Assembly (NCBI GenBank): GCA_023251875.1
Contig: JAHEXY010000012.1
Span: 16,111 to 80,110, forward strand
DNA: 64,000 nucleotides
Direction of reading: 5' to 3'
From: Bacteroidota bacterium
GTDB lineage: Bacteria > Bacteroidota > Bacteroidia > JAHEXY01
How positions within the stretch are numbered: position 1 is the stretch's first letter; the number at the start of each line of letters is the position of its first letter. Under the pieces are notes generated by a model. That model ran no database searches. It saw nothing but the letters and a program-made list of their open reading frames with translations, and had not been told where the DNA came from. The translations under genes and the position numbers were made by a program. Of this stretch, positions 4,195 through 17,429 are shown piece by piece.

Positions 4195-5115
4195 CTAATA
4201 AATAACATCTCTACCCTTACGCACATCAGATTTTTGTTCTTTGAAGTATTGAATATACTTTAGGTCAATAATATCTGTCCAACCAATAAGATATTTTGTT
4301 ATGGGTCCAATTTCTAGTTGAGAAATATATTCTCGAGGAGATGTCATGATATCATTCGGAAACATTTTCTTTAAGTCTGATTTATACAATTTAGTTGTAC
4401 TGTATTTATGATAGTATAAATCTGCTGCACCAAAAACATGAAGAATTTCATGCGCAATTAATCCCGGTACTTTAAAACTAGAAACGGCAAACTCAACATA
4501 ATCATTACTCATTGCATTTAGGGTAATTGAACAATCGTCTTTATAATAATTATTCAACATATAAAGCAATACAACACTTTCAACATTGTATTGATCACGA
4601 AGTTTAGCAACCAAACGCTCTTTATTTTTATAATCGGGATATACTTTATTTACCACACGATTGCCCCATTTTTCGAGCTGATCAATGCCATCATCGGCAG
4701 CCAATACTTTTGTTACAGGTCCCGGGAGATTTTGTTCAACGGTTCTACTGGTATCAGAAGACAAATAATCAAAACTGATATGCAATTGAATATTACTTTT
4801 TGCGGCTTGGTCTTGTATCCAGTTAATGGCTCTGTTAATCGAATCTGTAGCTGTATTGATATCATAGTTTGTCCAACCGAGAGAAGATTTGGTATCAACC
4901 CAAATGGCATACACTAATACATTGCCTTGTAATTTTTTACAAACATTATGATCGCGTGCCATACGGCTATCAATGGCATACCAATCTTTGGAATCTTGAG
5001 AAAAGGCTGAAGTGAAAAATAAAAAAAATAAAAGCCCTATCCCAGCCTTCTTCAAAAGGGAAAGAGTAGCAAGTGCTTTTAAAATATTTTGGAATAATTG
5101 GGTAATTGAAGTCAT
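4195..5115 (-). CDS. secreted HExxH zinc metallopeptidase-like protein
   Basis: N-terminal signal peptide and a HEILHVFGAADLY zincin-type motif near the C-terminus. Confidence 0.5.
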   Translation of the reverse strand: MTSITQLFQNILKALATLSLLKKAGIGLLFFLFFTSAFSQDSKDWYAIDSRMARDHNVCKKLQGNVLVYAIWVDTKSSLGWTNYDINTATDSINRAINWIQDQAAKSNIQLHISFDYLSSDTSRTVEQNLPGPVTKVLAADDGIDQLEKWGNRVVNKVYPDYKNKERLVAKLRDQYNVESVVLLYMLNNYYKDDCSITLNAMSNDYVEFAVSSFKVPGLIAHEILHVFGAADLYYHKYSTTKLYKSDLKKMFPNDIMTSPREYISQLEIGPITKYLIGWTDIIDLKYIQYFKEQKSDVRKGRDVIY

Positions 5116-5242
5116 TATTTATTTAGGTATTGGATTTTAAAAAAGATACATAATCTTTTCTATTTTCCAATATTTGTATTACCAATCATTCTCGATTATT
5201 TTTCATCAGCTAATTATCTCATTAGCTAATCAGCTAATCTTT

Positions 5243-7648: not shown

Positions 7649-8839
7649 TTAAGAAAGCACTTTATTCACCAAATCAGCAGCTTCTTGTAATGCAATGGCT
7701 GAGTATACTTTTAAGCCCGATTCATCAATTATTTTTTTAGCTTGTTCGGCATTGGTACCTTGTAAACGCACAATAATTGGCACATTTACTTGTCCTAAAT
7801 TTTTGTATGCATCAACTACACCCTGAGCAACACGATCACAACGAACAATACCTCCAAAAATATTTACCAGAATGGCTTTTACATTGGGATCTCTCATAAT
7901 AATTCTAAAAGCTTGTTCAACACGAGCCGCATCTGCGGTTCCACCTACATCTAAAAAATTTGCAGGTTCTCCACCTGAAAGTTTGATAATATCCATAGTT
8001 GCCATGGCTAACCCGGCACCATTTACCATACAACCAACATTACCATCTAGCTTAACATAATTTAAACTATGCTTACTTGCTTCTACTTCTGTAGGATCTT
8101 CTTCGGTAATATCACGCATGGCTTCATAATCAGGATGTCGAAACAATCCATTTCCATCTAATGAAACTTTTGCATCAACAGCAATTATTTTATCGTCAGA
8201 AGTTTTTAGCACAGGATTAATCTCGAAAAGTGATGAATCAGAACTTTCATAAGCTTTGTATAAAGAAGCAACAAATTTTGTCATTTCTTTAAAAGCTTTT
8301 CCGGAGAGGCCAAGATTGAATGCAATTTTTCTGCACTGAAAATCTTGTAAACCTACTTTTGGATCAATTTCTTCTTTATAAATTAAATGAGGGGTATGTT
8401 CTGCAACGGCTTCAATATCCATTCCACCTTCAGTAGAATAAATAATTACATTTTTCCCTGCTTGGCGATTAAGCAATACACTCATGTAAAATTCTTTGGG
8501 TTTGCTTTCACCGGGATAATAAACATCTTCAGCAATCAACACTTTGTTTACTTTTTTTCCTTTGGCTCCGGTTTGCGGGGTGATTAATTGCATACCAATA
8601 ATTTTGCCGGCAATTTCCTTTACATCATCTAATGATTTTGCCAATTTTACTCCTCCCCCTTTTCCACGCCCTCCGGCATGTATTTGAGCTTTTATAACCC
8701 ACCAATTGGTTCCTGTATCAGCATTTAATTTTTTTGCTGCTTCAACAGCTTGTTCGGCCGTATCCGCAACAATGCCTCTTTGTGTAGCAACTCCAAAGCT
8801 GCTTAAAATTTGTTTTCCTTGGTATTCGTGTATATTCAT
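7649..8839 (-). CDS. sucC: succinate--CoA ligase (ADP-forming) beta subunit
   Basis: [13 protein letters not shown]-terminus and ATP-grasp plus CoA-ligase domains. The 19 codons upstream in the ORF track translate the heptamer repeat and were judged not to be coding. Confidence 0.9.
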
Positions 8840-9001: not shown

Positions 9002-10603
9002 ATGAAAAAAATATATCTACTTTTCTCCTTTATATCTGTTTTTTTTATTCACGTAATAAAAACAAATGCTCAAGTTGCATCACAAGATTCTTTAGCCTTA
9101 GTTGATTTATATGATTCAACCAATGGTAGTTCATGGACAACCAAAACCAATTGGCTAAGCGGTAATGTTTCTACCTGGTATGGAATTACCATTAGCAGTA
9201 ACAGGGTTACCGGCATTTCGATGAATAATAATAACATTGTGGGTGCTATACCTTCGTCAATTGGCAATTTAAGTGCGCTTACCTCTATATATTTAAATTC
9301 AAATAAGATTACTTCACTGCCAGAAGAGCTTTCTAATATTAGTACGCTAACAATAATGCGAATGGAAAGTAATCAATTTTCTTTTCCATTTTTTGTAGGG
9401 AAAATGACACAATTAATAGAGTTGGATCTTTCTGGAAATAAATTTTCTATTAGTTTTCCTGATACGCTTTATAAGCTAACAAATGCAAAAATGATAAATA
9501 TAGGAAGTTGTTCTATATCAGGCTCATTAGATTCAAGAATTTCACAATGGCCTAAATTAACATGGATGTATTTTGGTTATAATAATTTATCAGGAGCTAT
9601 TCCTTCTAATATTGGAATGCTTACGAATATGACGTTTCTTGAGCTCAATAATAATCAACTTAGTGGATCGCTTCCTACCAGTATAGGAAATTTAAGTACT
9701 AAGCTTAGCTACTTAAGGCTTAATAATAATAAATTTAATGGGCATATACCGGATACACTCTACTCACTTTTATCTTTAAAAGAATTGAATTTACATGACA
9801 ATTATTTTTCAGGATCAGTATCCCCTTTAATTGCTAAACTAACCAGTTTAACAACTTTATACTTATATAATGATAGTTTAGTTGGAACATTCCCACCATC
9901 AATTGATAGTTTGGTTAACCTTCAGTATTTAGAAATTAATAATAATATGTTTGATAGTTTCCCTGATATTTCGGCATTAAAAAATATTAGTTATTTATAC
10001 CTTCAAGATAATAAGTTTACTTTTGAAGATATAGAACCTAACATAAGTGTAGCTACTAGTTCATTTACCTATTCTCCACAAGATAGTGTTAAGTCAAATC
10101 TCTTTGTAAATCTAAATTCAGGAGATACTCTTTTAATTACATCAACTATTGGAGGAACAATAAATGCTTATCAATGGTATAAAAATGGTGTAGCTATTTC
10201 AGGAGCAACTGACGATACATTAAAAATACTAAACGTAACTGCTCTTAATTCAGGAGCCTATTCATGCAAAATAACTAATGCAATAGCAAGCGCTTTAAAA
10301 TTATACAGAAAATCTGTTTTTGTAACTGTTAGTTCAATTACTTCTATTACTCCAATTGAAATACGAAATCAATTGAATGTATATCCAAATCCTTCTGAAA
10401 ATGGCATTTATAATTTAAGTGATTTTAATACAAATAAAATGGGAAACATACTTTCTGTTTTTAATATTACCGGAGAAAAAATAATGTCTATTTCAATAGG
10501 TAAAGACACCAAACAGATAGATTTATCTACGCTTTCAAAAGGAACTTATATTGCAACAATTGAAAACGAAAACGGTAAGCAAACAATTAAAATTATTAGA
10601 TAA
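9002..10603 (+). CDS. leucine-rich-repeat protein with Ig-like region and T9SS C-terminal sorting domain
   Basis: Signal peptide, LxxLxLxxN LRR units and a C-terminal ~80 aa with LNVYPNPSE...GTYIATIENENGKQTIKIIR, typical of a type A sorting domain. Confidence 0.75.
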   Translation: MKKIYLLFSFISVFFIHVIKTNAQVASQDSLALVDLYDSTNGSSWTTKTNWLSGNVSTWYGITISSNRVTGISMNNNNIVGAIPSSIGNLSALTSIYLNSNKITSLPEELSNISTLTIMRMESNQFSFPFFVGKMTQLIELDLSGNKFSISFPDTLYKLTNAKMINIGSCSISGSLDSRISQWPKLTWMYFGYNNLSGAIPSNIGMLTNMTFLELNNNQLSGSLPTSIGNLSTKLSYLRLNNNKFNGHIPDTLYSLLSLKELNLHDNYFSGSVSPLIAKLTSLTTLYLYNDSLVGTFPPSIDSLVNLQYLEINNNMFDSFPDISALKNISYLYLQDNKFTFEDIEPNISVATSSFTYSPQDSVKSNLFVNLNSGDTLLITSTIGGTINAYQWYKNGVAISGATDDTLKILNVTALNSGAYSCKITNAIASALKLYRKSVFVTVSSITSITPIEIRNQLNVYPNPSENGIYNLSDFNTNKMGNILSVFNITGEKIMSISIGKDTKQIDLSTLSKGTYIATIENENGKQTIKIIR

Positions 10604-12043: not shown

Positions 12044-13051
12044 TTATTTATATAATTCTACTGCGTTTTTAAGTCTTGCTTGAATTTTTCTTCTTAACCT
12101 TTTAGGAGATAAAATTTTTAAACTCTCTCCAAAACCTAGTATTTCTCTTTCCAATTCAAAATTCCATATTACCTCTATCGAAAAAACAGTTCCATCAACC
12201 TCTTCTTTCAGTACTATTTGAGAAGTATGAAGTGGTTTAGTAATAATGTACGGAGCATTCATTTTATTTATTTTCATTACAATTAAATCCGGTTTTTGAC
12301 CAGGCATTTTTGAAACTCCAATTACGTCATTAAAATAAGTTTCAATATTAAAATTGGGTTTAACATATTTTTCAGAAAGCAATTCTGCTATTTCAACCAT
12401 GCGATCCAAAGCTAAGATCATGAGCGTCTGTCCTTTTTTATTTACTCCCATGCTAAACCATCTATTTCTATATTCTTTTAACAAATAAGGATAAAAAATA
12501 ATTTGACTTGAGCTTTTTGCTTTAAACGATTGATAAGTTATTTGCAAGGTTTTTTTATTGATAATTGCTTTGTGAATAATATCAATAAATTGCAGACCTT
12601 TCAATAATTCATTTTTTTCAAAATCAATATACGATTTGCCCTTATTTTGTTGTTTCAGTAATTTATCTTCAAGCTTAGTAACCATTGTAGTTAATTCTTG
12701 AAAATAATTAAACCCCTTAAATTGTTTTAATATTTCTACTACTTCACTTAATGTGCCTAAATCTTGCCCTGTTAAAGGGATATTTGTAATGCTATAATTT
12801 TTGTCTTCATAGCTATAATGTTTTTTATTACTTACAATAATGGGAGCATTGTAACCAAGCTTTTCACTTCGCATATTTTGCAAATCAAGCTGTACTGATC
12901 TCTTGCTTATTCCCTTTGTAATTCCTTCGTATTCATACAAGGCCTCAGAACATGCCTCCATTAAATCTTCCAATGTCCATTTACGAAAACGGTTTTGCAA
13001 ACAGTTATCAATGGTTTTATAACGAATAAGAGCAAATTTGTTGATGGACAT
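12044..13051 (-). CDS. WYL-domain transcriptional regulator (YafY-like wHTH + WYL + C-terminal extension), divergent from rsr
   Basis: N-terminal wHTH (FALIRYKTIDNCL...ISKRSVQLDLQNMR) and the WYL hallmark ...IIFYPYLLKEYRNRWFSMGV. The start was chosen at the internal Met (MSINKF) because the upstream 35 codons look non-coding. Confidence 0.7.
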   Translation of the reverse strand: MSINKFALIRYKTIDNCLQNRFRKWTLEDLMEACSEALYEYEGITKGISKRSVQLDLQNMRSEKLGYNAPIIVSNKKHYSYEDKNYSITNIPLTGQDLGTLSEVVEILKQFKGFNYFQELTTMVTKLEDKLLKQQNKGKSYIDFEKNELLKGLQFIDIIHKAIINKKTLQITYQSFKAKSSSQIIFYPYLLKEYRNRWFSMGVNKKGQTLMILALDRMVEIAELLSEKYVKPNFNIETYFNDVIGVSKMPGQKPDLIVMKINKMNAPYIITKPLHTSQIVLKEEVDGTVFSIEVIWNFELEREILGFGESLKILSPKRLRRKIQARLKNAVELYK

Positions 13052-13099
13052 ATAAAAACTATTAAAATTGAGTTCCTTAAAGATAGTAAATTCAAAATC

Positions 13100-13118
13100 T
13101 ACGCAATCTATTTGCGCA
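13100..13118. promoter_or_regulatory. degenerate 8-3-8 palindrome, TACGCAAT cta TTTGCGCA. It sits in the WYL-regulator promoter region and is a candidate operator.
   Basis: Inverted repeat with TTGCGCA-like half-sites, about 100 bp from the perfect copy at 13202. Confidence 0.35.
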
Positions 13119-13201
13119 TTAATAGAACAAAACAAAATAAATTGCAAATTTTTCAATTGAATACCAATCAGTTAAATAAAATTAAGCAATATTATTTTAT
13201 C

Positions 13202-13220
13202 TGCGCAATTACATTGCGCA
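13202..13220. promoter_or_regulatory. perfect 8-3-8 palindrome, TGCGCAAT tac ATTGCGCA. It lies about 80 bp upstream of the rsr start and is a candidate operator.
   Basis: Perfect inverted repeat seen directly in the sequence. Confidence 0.45.
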
Positions 13221-13303
13221 ATAGTATATGAACTTTGTTTTATCAATAAGAAAATATAGAAACTTGTTGAGAAATAATGTCAAACCATTAATCAGTAGAA
13301 AAA

Positions 13304-14821
13304 ATGAAATTCAACATCTTTAAAAGAAACACAAATGTAGTAAACAACTTTGAAGGAGAAAAAGCATATCAATTAAATCCGGAAATGGAATTATATGCAG
13401 CTGTGGTTACTGCCGGTTTAAGTGATAACTTTTATGAAAAAACAGACGACCGTCTTTCTCGTATACAAAATTTGATTAAAAAAAACCAGGCTGAATATGT
13501 TGCTAAATTAGCCATTTATTCACGAAATCAAATGTACATGCGTAGCATGCCAATGGTATTGGCAGTTGAATTGGCAAAATTCAATTCAGGTAATGCAATC
13601 ATAAAGAAAACTGTGAGTGGTGTAGTAAAACGTGCTGATGAAATAACAGAATTGCTTGCGTACTATCAATTGGCAAATAAACGAAATGGTGTTAAAAAGT
13701 TAAATAAACTTTCTAAACAAATACAAAAAGGTTTGTCTGATGCATTCAATAATTTTGATGAGTATCAATTTGCTAAATATAACCGTGAGGCTGAAATCAA
13801 ATTGAGAGATGCATTGTTTCTTGTTCATCCCAAAGCAAAAGATGATAAGCAACAAATTCTTTTTAATAAAATTGCATCAAATGAATTGGCTGTACCCTAT
13901 TCTTGGGAAACTGAATTATCAGCATTAGGTCAATTAAAATATGTAGATGATAAAGAAAAAGCTGTTGCATTTCGTGCTAAATGGGAAGAATTGATTGATA
14001 GCAATAAAATAGGCTATATGGCTTTGTTAAGAAATTTGAGAAACATATTGGAGGCAGAAGTTTCGGCAACGCATGTAAAAAAAGTATGTTCTTATTTATC
14101 AAACGAAACTGCTGTAGCAAATTCAAAACAATTACCATTTCGCTTTTTAGCTGCATATCGAGAATTAAAACTGTTAAAGTTTGGTTTTGCATCAATGGTA
14201 TTGAATGCTTTAGAAGATGCAGTTGTTACAAGTGTAAAAAATCTAAAAGGTTTTGATGAAGATACCCGCGTATTAATTGCATGTGATGTATCGGGCTCAA
14301 TGCAAAAACCAATATCTGCAAGAAGCAAAATATTGTTATTCGATATTGGTTTGTTATTAGCCATGTTAATACAATCAAAATGCAAACACGTAGTAAGCGG
14401 AATGTTTGGTGATAGCTGGAAAATAATTAACATGCCTAATCGAGGAATATTGTCAAATGTTGATGAATATTATAAGCGGGAAGGTGAAGTAGGTTATTCA
14501 ACTAATGGCTATAAAGTAATTGATGATTTAGTAAATCGCAATGTAAAAATGGATAAAGTAATGTTATTTACTGATTGCCAATTGTGGAATAGTAACAAAA
14601 CAGATTCTAATATTGAAAAATCATGGAAAGCTTATAAAGCAATAGCGCCAAAAGCTAAATTATATTTGTTTGATTTAGCCGGTTATGGAAACACTCCATT
14701 AAATATGCAACAAAATGATGTGTATTTAATTGCCGGTTGGTCAGATAAAATATTTGATGTGCTTTCTTCTATTGAAAATGGAGTAAGTGCTATTGAAAAA
14801 ATTAAACAAATAGAGTTATAA
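13304..14821 (+). CDS. rsr: Ro60-like ribonucleoprotein Rsr (TROVE domain + von Willebrand factor A domain)
   Basis: The N-terminal region resembles the Ro60 TROVE start (Y......L......G...FYE). The C-terminal vWA has a MIDAS DVSGSM motif. The gene is followed by tRNA-like Y-RNA modules. Confidence 0.8.
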   Translation: MKFNIFKRNTNVVNNFEGEKAYQLNPEMELYAAVVTAGLSDNFYEKTDDRLSRIQNLIKKNQAEYVAKLAIYSRNQMYMRSMPMVLAVELAKFNSGNAIIKKTVSGVVKRADEITELLAYYQLANKRNGVKKLNKLSKQIQKGLSDAFNNFDEYQFAKYNREAEIKLRDALFLVHPKAKDDKQQILFNKIASNELAVPYSWETELSALGQLKYVDDKEKAVAFRAKWEELIDSNKIGYMALLRNLRNILEAEVSATHVKKVCSYLSNETAVANSKQLPFRFLAAYRELKLLKFGFASMVLNALEDAVVTSVKNLKGFDEDTRVLIACDVSGSMQKPISARSKILLFDIGLLLAMLIQSKCKHVVSGMFGDSWKIINMPNRGILSNVDEYYKREGEVGYSTNGYKVIDDLVNRNVKMDKVMLFTDCQLWNSNKTDSNIEKSWKAYKAIAPKAKLYLFDLAGYGNTPLNMQQNDVYLIAGWSDKIFDVLSSIENGVSAIEKIKQIEL

Positions 14822-14825
14822 GCCC

Positions 14826-14856
14826 AAGCCCTTTTCTAATTGCAGAAAAGGGCTTA
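14826..14856 (+). other. perfect 10-bp stem-loop immediately after the rsr stop codon. It lacks a U-tract and may be a processing or stability element or a partial terminator.
   Basis: aagccctttt ctaattgcag aaaagggctt. Confidence 0.5.
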
Positions 14857-15040
14857 TAAAAGGCCTTGTAGCTTAAATGGTCTGTTCTTTGAAAAATAAA
14901 TGATTAATACCGGAATGCCGTAGAAGCAAGATACTTCGGTACCAATAGGGAGCAAGCAGTATTAAAATACTGTTCCGGGTTGGACTCCCGGCTTACCATG
15001 CCCATTCTTGATTCGTCTTTTGCTTCTGGTAAAAAATAAA

Positions 15041-15160
15041 CGGTGCCGTATGAAAGAGATACTTCTTATGATTTATCTGTCGTTGGTTCGAATCCAACTT
15101 TCATGCAAATGAAATAGCTCAGTTGGTAGAGCAATAAAATGGCTCTTACAGTTTTTTGCC
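15041..15160 (+). ncRNA. Y-RNA-like unit 1 in the YrlA-like permuted tRNA arrangement: T-arm, loop-closed acceptor-like stem, D-arm
   Basis: T-arm GTTGG-TTCGAAT-CCAAC (15082-15098). Closed stem TTTCA-TGCAAA-TGAAA. D-arm AGCTCAGTTGGTAGAGCA (15116-15133). The 5' motif TGAAAGAG can pair with CTCTTACA after the D-arm. The unit ends in TTTTTT at 15152. Confidence 0.55.
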
Positions 15161-15177
15161 CGTTTTAAAATATTGAA

Positions 15178-15302
15178 TGGTGTCGTAGAAAAGAGTTACT
15201 TCGATTGTTACTCGAGAGGTTGTGGGTTCGAACCCCACCGGGATAACTATTACTTAAATTGTCCCGTAGCTCAATTGGCAGAGCACTATGCGTTCTTTTT
15301 TC
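15178..15302 (+). ncRNA. Y-RNA-like unit 2 in the YrlA-like permuted tRNA arrangement
   Basis: T-arm GTGGG-TTCGAAC-CCCAC (15222-15238). Closed acceptor-like stem CGGGA...TCCCG. D-arm AGCTCAATTGGCAGAGCA (15268-15285). Followed by a U-tract at 15293-15301. Confidence 0.55.
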
Positions 15303-15437
15303 GCTTGTTACCCATTCATTTAATAAATAGATGCCGTAGAAAATAGGTACTTCGTCCATAGAACAAACACTTTTTTCAATCATTGCTCTTTTTATTAATC
15401 TTTGCGTAATTTTAAATGTGGTAAATTCTTAAAAACA

Positions 15438-16457
15438 ATGTTCGATCCAAAACTTTTAAATGAAATGCTGGATGCAGGCTACATCAACATCCAAAAACAT
15501 CCTGAAGCTGATTTGTTTATTTATAATTATTCGCAAAAAGTGCAATATGACAGAATTTGGAATGAAGTTACTTTGCAATGCAGAGGCTTGATTCTTGACA
15601 AGCATCAAAACGTGGTTGCTCGCCCTTTTAGAAAATTCTTTAATCTGGGGGAAAGCGAAAATCAACATATTCCTAATGAAGCATTTGAAGTGTTTGAAAA
15701 AATGGATGGCTCCCTAGGTATTTTATATTGGCTAAATAACAAGCCTTGTATTGCTACCAGAGGGTCTTTTACAAGTGATCAAGCGTTTAAAGCAAATGCA
15801 ATTTTAAATGAAAAATATTCTACAATCTTTCCTAAACTTGATAGAAGCAAGACTTATTTGTTCGAGATTATTTATCCCGAAAACAGAATTGTATTGGATT
15901 ATGGAAAAACAGAAGACTTGTTTTTGCTAGCTATTATTGATCATGCAACGGGTCATGAAATGCGTCCTACAGACATTGGTTTTCCGGTGGTAAAACATTT
16001 TGATGGCATTCATGATATTAATAGACTAAGTGAACTTGAAGAAAACAATAAAGAAGGCTTTGTAATTAAATTTAGCAGTGGCTTGCGTTATAAGGTAAAG
16101 TTTAAAGAATATGTAAGAATTCATCGAATAATAACACAAGTATCAAACATTAATATTTGGGAATATTTAAAAGAGGGACAAACACTTGATGAATTACTCG
16201 ATAGAGTACCGGATGAATTTTATAGCTGGGTAAAAAAAACGAATTTAGATTTAGTAAATGCATATAAAGCCATTGAAGAAAAAGCTAAAAGCGAGTTTAA
16301 AGTTTTAGAAAATAGAAAGGATACTGCTTTGTATTTTCAGCAGTGTAAATATCCATCAGTGTTGTTTAATATGTTAGATAAGAAAGATTATTCTAAAACT
16401 ATATGGAAAATGCTTAGACCAACATTTTCAAAACCATTTTCAAACTTTGAAGAGTAA
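15438..16457 (+). CDS. ATP-dependent RNA ligase, T4 Rnl1 (gp63) family
   Basis: QCRGLILD...VARPFRKFFNLGE and nucleotidyltransferase motif I KMDGSL align with T4 Rnl1 ECRGIMF...RPMEKFFNLNE / KEDGSL. The start was moved to the ATG at 15438, which corresponds to the Rnl1 N-terminus. Confidence 0.8.
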   Translation: MFDPKLLNEMLDAGYINIQKHPEADLFIYNYSQKVQYDRIWNEVTLQCRGLILDKHQNVVARPFRKFFNLGESENQHIPNEAFEVFEKMDGSLGILYWLNNKPCIATRGSFTSDQAFKANAILNEKYSTIFPKLDRSKTYLFEIIYPENRIVLDYGKTEDLFLLAIIDHATGHEMRPTDIGFPVVKHFDGIHDINRLSELEENNKEGFVIKFSSGLRYKVKFKEYVRIHRIITQVSNINIWEYLKEGQTLDELLDRVPDEFYSWVKKTNLDLVNAYKAIEEKAKSEFKVLENRKDTALYFQQCKYPSVLFNMLDKKDYSKTIWKMLRPTFSKPFSNFEE

Positions 16458-16473
16458 GGCTCTAATCCTATAA

Positions 16474-16534
16474 ATCCTGACAGGTTTTATCTCAATTACC
16501 TACCAAGGTATTTCATAGCTAAACCTGTCAGGAT
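16474..16534. other. long intercistronic inverted repeat between the RNA ligase and kinase-phosphatase genes
   Basis: ATCCTGACAGGTTT ... AAACCTGTCAGGAT: perfect 14-bp arms with a 33-nt loop. Confidence 0.5.
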
Positions 16535-16556
16535 TATAAATAAAATTATTTGAACT

Positions 16557-17429
16557 ATGAAAAAGGTAATTATTATGCGAGGCCTGCCCGGAAGTGGTAA
16601 ATCAACCTATGCTAAAAAATTAGTAGAAGAAAATCCCAATAGCTATAAGCGTATTAATCGGGATGATTTACGAATGATGTTTGATAATGGCTATACGAGT
16701 GACGGAAATGAAAAATTTGTAAAAAAAGTTCGAGATATACTTATTATAAAAGCACTAGAAGAAGGCAAGCATGTAATTGTTGATGACACCAATCTCTCTG
16801 AGAAAAATGAAACTCGTATCCGCCAATTGGTTCATGAATTTAATAAAGCGCACAATGATGAAGTACAAGTAGAAATTAAAGAAATGGAAACCTCTCTTGA
16901 TGAATGTTTAAAACGTGATGCACTACGTGAAAAACCTGTTGGTCACAAAGTAATTAAAACTATGCATCGTCAATTCTTTCATAAAGATCCAGAATACAAA
17001 CAACAAGATGAAATACTTCCTAAAGCTATTATTTGCGATTTGGATGGCACCTTGGCATTCCTAAATGGAAGAAGTCCTTATGATGCTTCTCATTGTGATA
17101 AAGATTTATTAAATAAACCGGTTGCTAACACAATAAAGAATTATGCTAAACTTGGCTATAAAATTATTTTAGTTTCAGGAAGAAAAGATACGTATATGGA
17201 AACAACCAAAGTATGGTTAAAATTACATGACATTACATACGATATGCTGCTTATGCGTTCTGCAAATGACAATAGAAAAGATTCCATTATTAAACGTGAA
17301 ATATTTGATCAACATATCGCAAATAAATACTTTATTGAGTTCACCTTAGATGATCGCAATCAAGTAGTAGATATGTGGAGAAATGAATTAGGTGTTCCTT
17401 GCTTTCAGGTATATTATGGTAATTTTTAA
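16557..17429 (+). CDS. polynucleotide 5'-kinase / 3'-phosphatase, T4 Pnkp family
   Basis: N-terminal P-loop kinase GLPGSGKST...RINRDD. C-terminal HAD phosphatase with ICDLDGTLAF, VSGR and DDR motifs, collinear with T4 Pnkp. Confidence 0.85.
   Translation: MKKVIIMRGLPGSGKSTYAKKLVEENPNSYKRINRDDLRMMFDNGYTSDGNEKFVKKVRDILIIKALEEGKHVIVDDTNLSEKNETRIRQLVHEFNKAHNDEVQVEIKEMETSLDECLKRDALREKPVGHKVIKTMHRQFFHKDPEYKQQDEILPKAIICDLDGTLAFLNGRSPYDASHCDKDLLNKPVANTIKNYAKLGYKIILVSGRKDTYMETTKVWLKLHDITYDMLLMRSANDNRKDSIIKREIFDQHIANKYFIEFTLDDRNQVVDMWRNELGVPCFQVYYGNF

Follow-up and report, generated by a model that had tools for sequence, protein, structure and literature searches.

A WYL-controlled cassette of Ro60, Y-like RNAs, Rnl1-type ligase and Pnkp in Bacteroidota, a probable RNA heal-and-seal operon

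We describe a cassette (positions 12044-17429) in a 64-kb stretch of DNA from a Bacteroidota metagenome-assembled genome, hereafter the window, that combines a Ro60-like protein (Rsr) and an array of four Y-like RNAs with an Rnl1-type RNA ligase, a T4-type RNA end-healing enzyme (Pnkp), and a divergently transcribed WYL-domain regulator. Through comparison with homologous loci, to which we refer by L-numbers (e.g. L021), we conclude that the cassette is probably an inducible RNA heal-and-seal operon to which Ro60 and its Y RNAs are accessory, and that it represents one combination within a family of WYL-controlled repair islands. Judged from gene content, this family is modular: the sealing chemistry (RtcB versus Rnl1 plus Pnkp), the RNA scaffold (Ro60/Y RNA versus Band-7 or other tRNA-like RNAs), and spare tRNA genes appear to be shuffled among its members. 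An earlier sequence-only reading had named the five elements (Ro60, RNA-bearing gap, ligase, Pnkp, and divergent WYL regulator), and all five are present where it had placed them. The underlying open reading frames (ORFs) span 12044-13156 on the minus strand and 13304-14821, 15402-16457, and 16557-17429 on the plus strand, and yield the following protein genes.

12044..13051, minus strand: transcription regulator with winged helix-turn-helix (wHTH), WYL, and WCX domains, 335 aa (Pfam, PADLOC, AF2, Foldseek); ORF extendable to a TTG at 13156
13304..14821, plus strand: Ro60-like protein (Rsr), TROVE ring plus probable vWA domain with the metal ion-dependent adhesion site (MIDAS) motif DVSGS (Pfam, phiRo60 alignment, PHROG)
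15438..16457, plus strand: Rnl1-family ATP-dependent RNA ligase, 339 aa (Pfam, T4 Rnl1 alignment, PHROG 562)
16557..17429, plus strand: T4-type/Pnkp1-type 5'-kinase and 3'-phosphatase, 290 aa (Pfam, 4xrp and 1ltq alignments, PHROG 505)

Profile searches, Pfam and NCBIfam in agreement, place all four proteins in the families previously proposed for them, with catalytic residues kept, and the motifs picked out by the sequence-only reading (KMDGSL, CRGL, RPFRKFFNL, GLPGSGKS, and CDLDGT) are all found in the translations. The ATG at 15438, within an ORF open from 15402, is the most likely start codon of the ligase, because the resulting 339-aa form is identical to a database protein (P0001). It scores 66.8 bits against Pfam RNA_lig_T4_1 (PF09511; cut-off 28.3, E-value 3.3e-18), and PHROG 562, the gp63/Rnl1 family, covers its residues 10-336 at 2e-72. 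T4 Rnl1 (2c5u) matches it at 2e-15 over the nucleotidyltransferase domain, the phmmer alignment ending at residue 266 of 339. The two ligases are identical at R54, K75, F77, K99, D101, G102, E159, E227, G228, K240, and K242, with K119 replaced by Arg, and these residues of the window ligase are invariant in 14 homologues (family alignment A1). It is probably not an equivalog of T4 RnlA with its C-terminal tRNA-specificity domain, scoring 77 bits against TIGR02308 where the cut-off is 242. Pnkp fuses an N-terminal P-loop kinase (AAA_33, 1.2e-20) to a C-terminal HAD phosphatase with the DxDGT motif (HAD_PNKP, 3.7e-52), matches PHROG 505 at 6e-94, and aligns over its full length with Capnocytophaga Pnkp1 (4xrp, 4e-69) better than with T4 Pnkp (1ltq, 6e-46). 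Its conserved residues include K15, S16, D35, and R38 in the kinase and D165, D167, R176, R213, and D277/D278 in the phosphatase; the active sites of both enzymes are predicted to be intact.

Rsr scores 105 bits against Pfam TROVE (PF05731; cut-off 23, E-value 6.8e-30) and 26.0 bits against vWA_Ro60, slightly under the 27.7-bit cut-off, and its DxSxS motif (DVSGS) and downstream TD motif align with those of phiRo60. This protein of Thermus phage phiLo (PDB 9kop/9l5y) aligns full-length with Rsr residues 14-498 at 1.2e-26 and is its sole solved relative by sequence; Deinococcus and Xenopus Ro structures gave no sequence match at E < 0.01. Rsr also matches PHROG 850, annotated ‘RNA-binding protein’, at 6e-55, and is not an equivalog of characterised bacterial Rsr (NCBIfam NF041674, 22.4 bits, cut-off 900). 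It belongs to a divergent clade, closest to phage Ro60. phiRo60 has been shown experimentally to bind stem-bulge-stem Y-like RNAs via a CGAA motif (PMC12135203), and Y RNA binding is predicted for the window Rsr. We further report two Rsr homologues on viral contigs, one of 55% identity at L145 8001-9530 (26.8-kb contig) and one of 29% identity at L146 8001-9362 (240-kb contig of jumbo-phage size).

These phage affinities raise the possibility of a phage-derived or otherwise mobile counter-defence module, perhaps a prophage remnant, that would undo tRNA cleavage by host anticodon nucleases during infection. Rsr, ligase, and Pnkp match phage families full-length (PHROGs 850, 562, and 505), the closest solved Ro60 relative comes from a phage, a 55%-identity Rsr lies on a viral contig, and T4 uses Pnkp and Rnl1 in just such counter-defence. 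We nevertheless consider this origin very improbable. The cassette is flanked by housekeeping genes (a Por_Secre_tail protein, DegT aminotransferase, YihY/BrkB, OmpH, GldD, CorC, SSB, and MutY), with no phage structural, integrase, or lysis genes; its GC content of 0.29-0.35 equals that of the flanks, so that base composition shows no anomaly and hence gives no horizontal-transfer signal. Just two viral contigs matched Rsr, and the ligase family, with more than 8000 database members, is carried on Bacteroidota chromosomes (at least 559 species-level genomes, nearly all labelled Bacteroidota). PADLOC made no defence-system assignment for Rsr, ligase, or Pnkp.

The gap between rsr and the ligase gene does contain tRNA-like modules, as had been proposed, but it measures 616 nt (14822-15437) instead of about 560 nt, and it is not strictly ORF-free, carrying a 72-aa minus-strand ORF. 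Four modules fill positions 14906-15396, 85-575 nt downstream of rsr and thus on the same strand within ∼4 kb of it. They are listed here with their scores against R1, a covariance model based on an alignment (A2) of 21 modules from the window and 10 other genomes that includes modules 2 and 3.

14906..15033, plus strand: Y-like RNA 1, T-arm-only class, resembling Deinococcus Yrn1 (R1 39.8 bits, E-value 9e-8; outside the training set)
15034..15169, plus strand: Y-like RNA 2, YrlA-like (R1 118 bits, in the training set; Rfam YrlA 41.4 bits, E-value 1.2e-7)
15171..15321, plus strand: Y-like RNA 3, YrlA-like with full tRNA-like domain (R1 136.9 bits, in the training set; Rfam YrlA 39 bits, E-value 5.7e-7)
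15322..15396, plus strand: Y-like RNA 4, a ‘mini’ Y consisting of the stem-loop-stem Ro-binding module alone (R1 46.5 bits, E-value 2e-9; outside the training set)

ARAGORN and Rfam at gathering thresholds gave no match in the window. Run by E-value, Rfam finds in the gap two sub-threshold YrlA matches (41.4 and 39.0 bits, against a gathering score of 69) and one Deinococcus_Y_RNA match, likewise below its gathering score, to module 1 (34.2 bits, E-value 3e-4). Within the gap a 23-nt motif, UGCCGUAGAAnnnAGnUACUUCG, occurs four times at a spacing of 128-151 nt, and an R1 scan of the entire 64 kb returns exactly four matches, all in the gap and on the plus strand. From the outside inward, the RNAs comprise a lower stem in which the 5' and 3' ends pair, an internal loop bearing GUGYCGUAG, an upper stem, a variable hairpin starting UUACUUCG, a T arm (GGUUCGAAUCC), a closed acceptor-like stem, and a D arm (UAGCUCAGUGGUAGAGC); this is the same architecture as the YrlA plan of Chen et al. 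2014 (PMC4201824). Module 2 accordingly reads lower stem, GUGCCGUA loop, upper stem, T arm, acceptor-like stem, and D arm, and modules 2 and 3 both have the full tRNA-like domain, which runs from the T arm through the acceptor-like stem to the D arm. The invariant GUGYCGUAG has CGUA at the place of the published CGAA and lies, as does the published motif, in the internal loop between two stems (PMC4201824, PMC12135203).

Covariation bears out the earlier proposal of tRNA-mimicking modules and shows structured Y-like RNAs far beyond chance. The A2 consensus has 34 pairs, 26 of them with compensatory changes, and five helices are supported by covariation; 95% of cells are paired, compared with 41-50% when partners are slid, and the covariation score is 0.67 versus 0.23 in shuffles, none of 500 shuffles reaching the observed values. 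The mini-Y class recurs in seven other loci (six Rsr-positive ones and L038), and its own alignment (A3) has 84% of cells paired versus 45-52% slid and compensatory changes at 16 of 20 pairs, with 0/500 shuffles matching on four of five measures and 11/500 on the fifth. For module 1, which has homologues in five other loci, only the T arm and four compensatory pairs were recovered of the internal fold from six homologues. Full-length module homologues are retrieved by nhmmer in every Rsr-positive relative, in each of which R1 finds an array of 2-9 modules, likewise on the rsr strand and within ∼4 kb. We therefore report a Bacteroidota Y-RNA subfamily, including a stem-only class, that is supported by covariance and missed by current Rfam thresholds. 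The four window modules are packed head-to-tail, and because only 0-1 nt separate them they may derive from a single processed precursor.

Two other interpretations of this region were rejected. The modules are not degenerate tRNA pseudogenes: a covarying two-helix stem with an invariant motif replaces the anticodon arm, and the stem-only class is conserved. Nor do we accept as a real gene the 72-aa ORF (15165-15383, minus strand), which is annotated as such in a public assembly of the same sequence (L001 6311-6529); it has no Pfam match, overlies covarying modules 3 and 4, and is probably a false gene call. As a separate observation, the Y array of L080 contains two near-identical full-length modules (8533-8673 and 9621-9761) and two identical mini modules (8233 and 9351), indicating a recent internal duplication of ∼1.1 kb.

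Of the checks suggested with the sequence-only reading, all those open to computation came out in its favour, and none of the outcomes that it named as refuting was observed. Among them, the neighbourhood-conservation check finds the full arrangement in at least 10 other species-level genomes from several Bacteroidota families. Divergent WYL gene, Rsr, Y array, ligase, and Pnkp occur together in L021, L026, L035, L044, L054, L070, L080, and L084, and also in L043 and L065, where the upstream end is cut off; the first eight loci span Flavobacterium, Saprospiraceae/Saprospirales, Chitinophagales, Sphingobacteriales, and Rapidithrix. Among the 57 ligase loci with enough flank out of 80 retrieved, Pnkp follows the ligase on the same strand in 52 (29 adjacent, 23 at 0.9-5 kb), a divergent WYL gene lies upstream in 41, and Rsr lies upstream in nine. 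A reciprocal metagenome scan centred on Rsr gave 60 loci in which the divergent WYL-Rsr pair is conserved. None of the 60 has an Rnl1-type ligase; in these loci the gene beyond the RNA gap instead encodes an RtcB of ∼470 aa, in many cases accompanied by two RlaP nucleotidyltransferases. The closest relatives of the window Rsr (76-81% identity) also pair with RtcB, and it follows that the sealing module has been exchanged while the WYL-Rsr-Y module was kept. Where enough downstream flank is available (39 Rsr-positive loci), 16 have RtcB and 10 have Rnl1 plus Pnkp, one of these having both, and 14 have neither; two sealing chemistries thus serve the same module. The claim that a Salmonella-like logic is here built from different parts is supported by these sister loci, which join the same WYL-Rsr-Y module to RtcB. 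The window itself has no RtcB or RlaP homologue, no Band-7 protein, and neither Hen1 nor a PNKP_ligase-type Rnl.

Several relatives of the Rsr and WYL genes have settings of other kinds. In one group of metagenome loci (L115-L119, L133, L136, and L139) Rsr is followed by a conserved protein of 467-473 aa that matches nothing in Pfam (e.g. L119 9800-11203), and in the same loci an RtcB-like gene (∼34% identity) lies upstream, not downstream, of Rsr. The same WYL family stands at L147 (3502-8148) beside Band_7, two RtcB genes, a PrfH-like RF-1, and an M41 peptidase, and at L148 beside TROVE, a 3.2-kb RNA gap, Band_7, S24, RNase_T, RNA_ligase (PF09414), Thg1, and a reverse transcriptase.

The most likely start codon of the regulator is the ATG at 13051, giving 335 aa, rather than the TTG at 13156, because homologues align from residue 1 of the 335-aa form. 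It matches Pfam WYL (7.9e-11) and WCX (3.3e-10) and the PADLOC WYL profile (7.5e-25), and has more than 7000 homologues, the closest at 72-77% identity. Its AF2 model (predicted local distance difference test score, pLDDT, 75) comprises a winged helix (5-81), a WYL domain (165-225), and a WCX domain (250-335), which is the three-domain architecture of the DriD/PafBC/BrxR/CapW class. A sequence search against the PDB gave nothing meaningful, and the relatives emerged from the fold search: Foldseek matches the model over its full length to DriD (8tp8, 1e-12), PafBC, BrxR, and CapW, within a range of 1e-12 to 1e-6.

The 252-bp divergent region between the WYL gene and rsr contains two copies of a palindrome.

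13100..13118, unstranded: operator-like palindrome O1, TACGCAATCTATTTGCGCA, read from the sequence, 49-67 bp upstream of the WYL start codon
13201..13221, unstranded: operator-like palindrome O2, CTGCGCAAT-TAC-ATTGCGCAA, 83-103 bp upstream of the rsr start codon

The 23-bp consensus, ACTRCGCAA-N5-TTGCGYAGT, adjoins the WYL gene in several genera. In 21 of 47 WYL-positive loci the core, CGCAA-N5-TTGCG, occurs no more than 350 bp from the WYL start; its density there is 1.76 per kb compared to 0.11 per kb elsewhere, a 15-fold enrichment. We propose these palindromes as the putative operator of the WYL regulator, family-wide. In Flavobacterium loci near-perfect copies precede rsr, the Y array, the ligase gene (∼50 bp before its ATG), and a Hen1-like gene, each separately, which indicates that these parts belong to one regulon; several palindromes per Flavobacterium island suggest a multi-promoter regulon of the WYL regulator. 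Copies are found at 5221, 5488, 7110, and 9952 in L054; at 6271, 7889, and 9952 in L035; at 4652, 4740, 5044, 9949, and 11034 in L083; and at 9057, 9840, 9929, 11975, and 12075 in L007. The 64-kb window has no copy beyond O1 and O2, an absence that would fit a single operon driven from the divergent promoter; co-transcription from rsr to pnkp is suggested by the tight packing of the genes. A sigma-70 promoter scan of the window, which does not cover Bacteroidota promoters, gave 13 promoter-like sites versus 36 expected, and by a terminator scan neither rsr nor pnkp is followed by a canonical terminator.

Seven relatives have genuine tRNA genes in the interval from the Y array to the sealing enzyme, whether Rnl1-type or RtcB. 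All seven carry Lys(UUU); four carry Phe(GAA), three Tyr(GUA), three Gln(UUG), and two Arg(ACG). Positions include L084 9744-9972, L005 410-642, L043 2196-3759, L085 5548-6040, L087 3053, and L091 10114. Several of these species are known targets of anticodon nucleases: PrrC cuts tRNA-Lys, colicin E5 tRNA-Tyr, colicin D tRNA-Arg, and enzymes of the gamma-toxin type tRNA-Gln and tRNA-Lys. The embedded genes may be spare copies of nuclease-targeted tRNAs. Because RtcB and Rnl1 plus Pnkp are interchangeable, RNA scaffolds are interchangeable, and the embedded genes are for Lys(UUU), Tyr, Gln, Arg, and Phe tRNAs, the pattern as a whole suggests that the selective pressure is probably damage inflicted on tRNA by ribotoxins or anticodon nucleases.

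The Y-like RNAs might themselves be targets or sensors, serving as decoys for tRNA-directed nucleases or as a damage signal read by the WYL regulator, with ligase and Pnkp acting mainly to restore them or further substrates that are not tRNA (e.g. rRNA). The arrays hold many diverged tRNA-like paralogues, as many as ∼9 per locus, which would suit such a role; their T and D arms keep tRNA-like sequence, genuine tRNAs sometimes occur in the same arrays, and Salmonella RtcR is activated by tRNA fragments (PMC7790460). Yet the modules have a Ro-binding stem in place of an anticodon arm and therefore cannot decoy anticodon-loop nucleases, mini-Y RNAs with no tRNA-like part are also conserved, and nothing ties WYL domains of this class to RNA ligands. 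We regard this explanation as quite improbable.

A weightier alternative is that two independent systems share an island and a regulator: Ro60 and its Y RNAs would degrade structured RNA with the host polynucleotide phosphorylase (PNPase), as in Deinococcus and phage phiLo, and Rnl1 plus Pnkp would repair RNA separately, with no cooperation between them. Rsr-Y RNA-PNPase complexes are the sole experimentally established function of bacterial Ro60 (PMC4201824, PMC12135203), in Flavobacterium a separate promoter with the operator serves each unit, and neither an Rnl1-type ligase nor RtcB is in reach in 14 of the 39 Rsr-positive loci. Several observations, of which some also favour independence, weigh against the operon that we propose. 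Rsr and Y RNAs are absent from 48 of the 57 ligase-Pnkp loci, and ligase and Pnkp therefore do not need them; adjacency to Rsr may reflect a shared regulon rather than physical cooperation. In the window, no operator or recognisable promoter precedes the Y array or the ligase gene, a hairpin follows rsr, and there are neither embedded tRNA genes nor a nearby nuclease toxin to indicate a specific target. The Y RNAs score below the Rfam YrlA gathering score and have GYCGUAG instead of the published GNCGAA, and the regulator's structural relatives bind single-stranded DNA (ssDNA), not RNA. On the other side, Rsr lies directly upstream of an RNA-sealing enzyme of one or the other type in 25 of the 39 loci, it shares the putative operator with that enzyme, and genuine tRNA genes are interspersed with it; moreover, unless Rsr and Y RNAs are associated with ligation itself, it is hard to see why they would be kept while RtcB is exchanged for Rnl1 plus Pnkp. 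Independence of the two systems is thus unlikely in our judgement, and we retain the heal-and-seal operon with an accessory Ro60/Y RNA particle as the probable explanation.

Under the heal-and-seal explanation, the regulator would switch the operon on in response to a signal of nucleic-acid damage, of which broken RNA (e.g. tRNA fragments) is the most plausible. An RNA-damage ligand would have precedent in RtcR (PMC7790460) and in the ssDNA-sensing regulators DriD, PafBC, and CapW. Four Y RNAs would then be cut from one precursor; Pnkp would turn 2',3'-cyclic-phosphate/5'-OH ends into 3'-OH/5'-phosphate ends; and the Rnl1-type ligase would reseal these, the likeliest substrates being tRNAs whose anticodon loops have been cut by ribotoxins or anticodon nucleases. 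The Ro60-Y particle, as an optional accessory, might offer broken RNA to the repair enzymes or keep it in place for them, or it might direct RNAs to either repair or decay; we infer, in the earlier phrase, that repair may be ‘Y-RNA-guided’. A bolder version, which we put forward only tentatively, makes the Ro60-Y particle a tRNA-shaped adaptor that would physically couple broken tRNAs to the heal-and-seal pair. The regulator would then be the first WYL sensor of damaged RNA (e.g. tRNA halves with a 2',3'-cyclic phosphate), driving through ACTRCGCAA-N5-TTGCGYAGT a multi-promoter regulon of repair enzymes, Y arrays, and spare tRNAs as an anti-ribotoxin immunity island widespread in Bacteroidota.

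Two hairpins complete the features of the cassette.

14826..14855, plus strand: perfect 12-bp hairpin with no U tract just 3' of the rsr stop (inverted repeat; not a canonical terminator by the scan)
16473..16535, plus strand: strong hairpin with a 15-bp perfect stem in the 99-nt spacer between the ligase and Pnkp genes (fold z-score -5.2)

The first may be an mRNA 3' end or a processing structure. The arms of the second are unique in the window, and in many relatives the ligase and Pnkp genes abut or overlap; it may serve in processing or attenuation, or be a small insertion.

Some Flavobacterium islands show further variation. Where Pnkp is distant from the ligase gene, a Hen1_N-like gene and a PNKP_ligase-domain gene lie between the Rnl1-type ligase and Pnkp. 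Rsr-less Flavobacterium islands contain tRNA-shaped RNAs that match Rfam tRNA at 55.5 bits and have a 57-79-nt insertion at the anticodon-loop site (L083 4904-5023 and 5200-5323; L082 ∼4680-4790; L020, L025, L033, and others), upstream of the gene for a protein of 746 aa that is conserved but matches nothing in Pfam. Such RNA and protein may together form another scaffold, analogous to Ro60/Y RNA or Band-7/b7a-tRNA. The islands of L082 and L083 (at positions 3.8-21 kb) are much larger than the cassette, with HEPN_AbiV, several unknown proteins of 180-250 aa, Hen1_N-like, PNKP_ligase-domain Rnl, TatD, DUF434/DUF5616, and RlaP genes, and with a tRNA Trp-Ser-Asp cluster ∼8 kb downstream of the ligase gene.

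The part that bacterial Ro60 and Y RNAs play in RNA repair has been an open question since their discovery beside RtcB, and RtcB systems are difficult to dissect, their substrates being unclear. The variant described here ties the Ro60/Y module to the best-understood repair chemistry, that of T4-type Pnkp and Rnl1, for which robust in-vitro assays exist, and puts it under a small regulator with a clearly defined putative operator. Direct tests thereby become possible of the effect of Ro60-Y on healing and sealing, and of the ligand that switches the WYL regulator; the cassette offers a biochemically tractable route to bacterial Ro60/Y RNA function.

Rsr/Y RNA has already been proposed as a cofactor of RNA ligation (bioRxiv 10.1101/312249), and the same paper, citing Burroughs & Aravind 2016, notes that Rsr/YrlA occasionally occur beside non-RtcB ligase families. 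Our literature search, in which Burroughs & Aravind 2016 is represented by that citing paper, returned no description of or experiment on the Rnl1 plus Pnkp1 version, and nothing on the WYL operator and multi-promoter regulon, on the Bacteroidota Y-RNA subfamily with its stem-only class, or on the embedded tRNAs. The Runella HD-Pnk cluster, also considered, is a different system. Compared with the Band-7/b7a-tRNA-RtcB systems (Burroughs & Aravind 2016, as cited in bioRxiv 10.1101/312249), the link is the WYL family, found beside a Band_7-RtcB-RtcB-PrfH-like operon in L147; the window has Ro60 and Y RNAs instead. Deinococcus Rsr-Y RNA-PNPase (RYPER) and Thermus phage phiRo60-Yrl (PMC4201824, PMC12135203) share with the window a TROVE ring protein (in the window with a probable vWA domain) and RNAs built of a stem, an internal loop with a CG-containing motif, and a second stem, and module 1 resembles Yrn1 in having a T arm and no D arm. 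In the window, by contrast, no PNPase linkage is seen, the motif is GYCGUAG and not GNCGAA, and the operon partners are repair enzymes. DriD, PafBC, BrxR, and CapW are like the window regulator in their three-domain architecture, divergent gene, and palindromic sites; known members control DNA-damage or anti-phage genes and bind ssDNA, whereas the family of the window regulator would control RNA-repair islands.

On the enzymatic side, T4 uses Pnkp and Rnl1 to mend tRNA-Lys after its cleavage by PrrC (summarised in PMC4411300 and PMC6097658). The window has the same two-enzyme chemistry, with a Pnkp that aligns full-length and has all catalytic residues and a ligase that has the nucleotidyltransferase motifs in common with Rnl1; it differs in being chromosomal and regulated rather than a phage early function, in the distant relationship of its ligase, and in having Ro60 and Y RNAs alongside. 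The Capnocytophaga Pnkp1-Rnl-Hen1 system (PMC4411300) contains Pnkp1 (4xrp), to which the window Pnkp is closest, and Flavobacterium islands, with their Hen1_N-like protein and PNKP_ligase-domain Rnl, recall this complex. With Hen1 absent and sealing left to an Rnl1-type enzyme, the window cassette is not expected to include a 2'-O-methyl ‘immunisation’ step.

The nearest functional parallel is the rsr-yrlBA-rtcBA operon of Salmonella Typhimurium, which is induced by tRNA fragments through RtcR (Chen 2013/2014; Hughes 2020, PMC7790460). In both systems a Ro60 orthologue and tRNA-like Y RNAs lie directly upstream of the sealing enzyme on the same strand, beside a divergent regulator with a ligand domain (nucleic-acid-sensing in Salmonella), and RtcB partners close relatives of the window Rsr. 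The window uses an ATP-dependent Rnl1-type ligase and a separate Pnkp where Salmonella uses RtcB and the RtcA cyclase, and a wHTH-WYL-WCX regulator with a palindromic operator where Salmonella uses the CARF-AAA+ sigma-54 activator RtcR; unlike Salmonella, it has four Y RNAs of three classes and a divergent, phage-like Rsr. The window cassette would thus work like a Salmonella-type RtcBA operon without being a member of that group.

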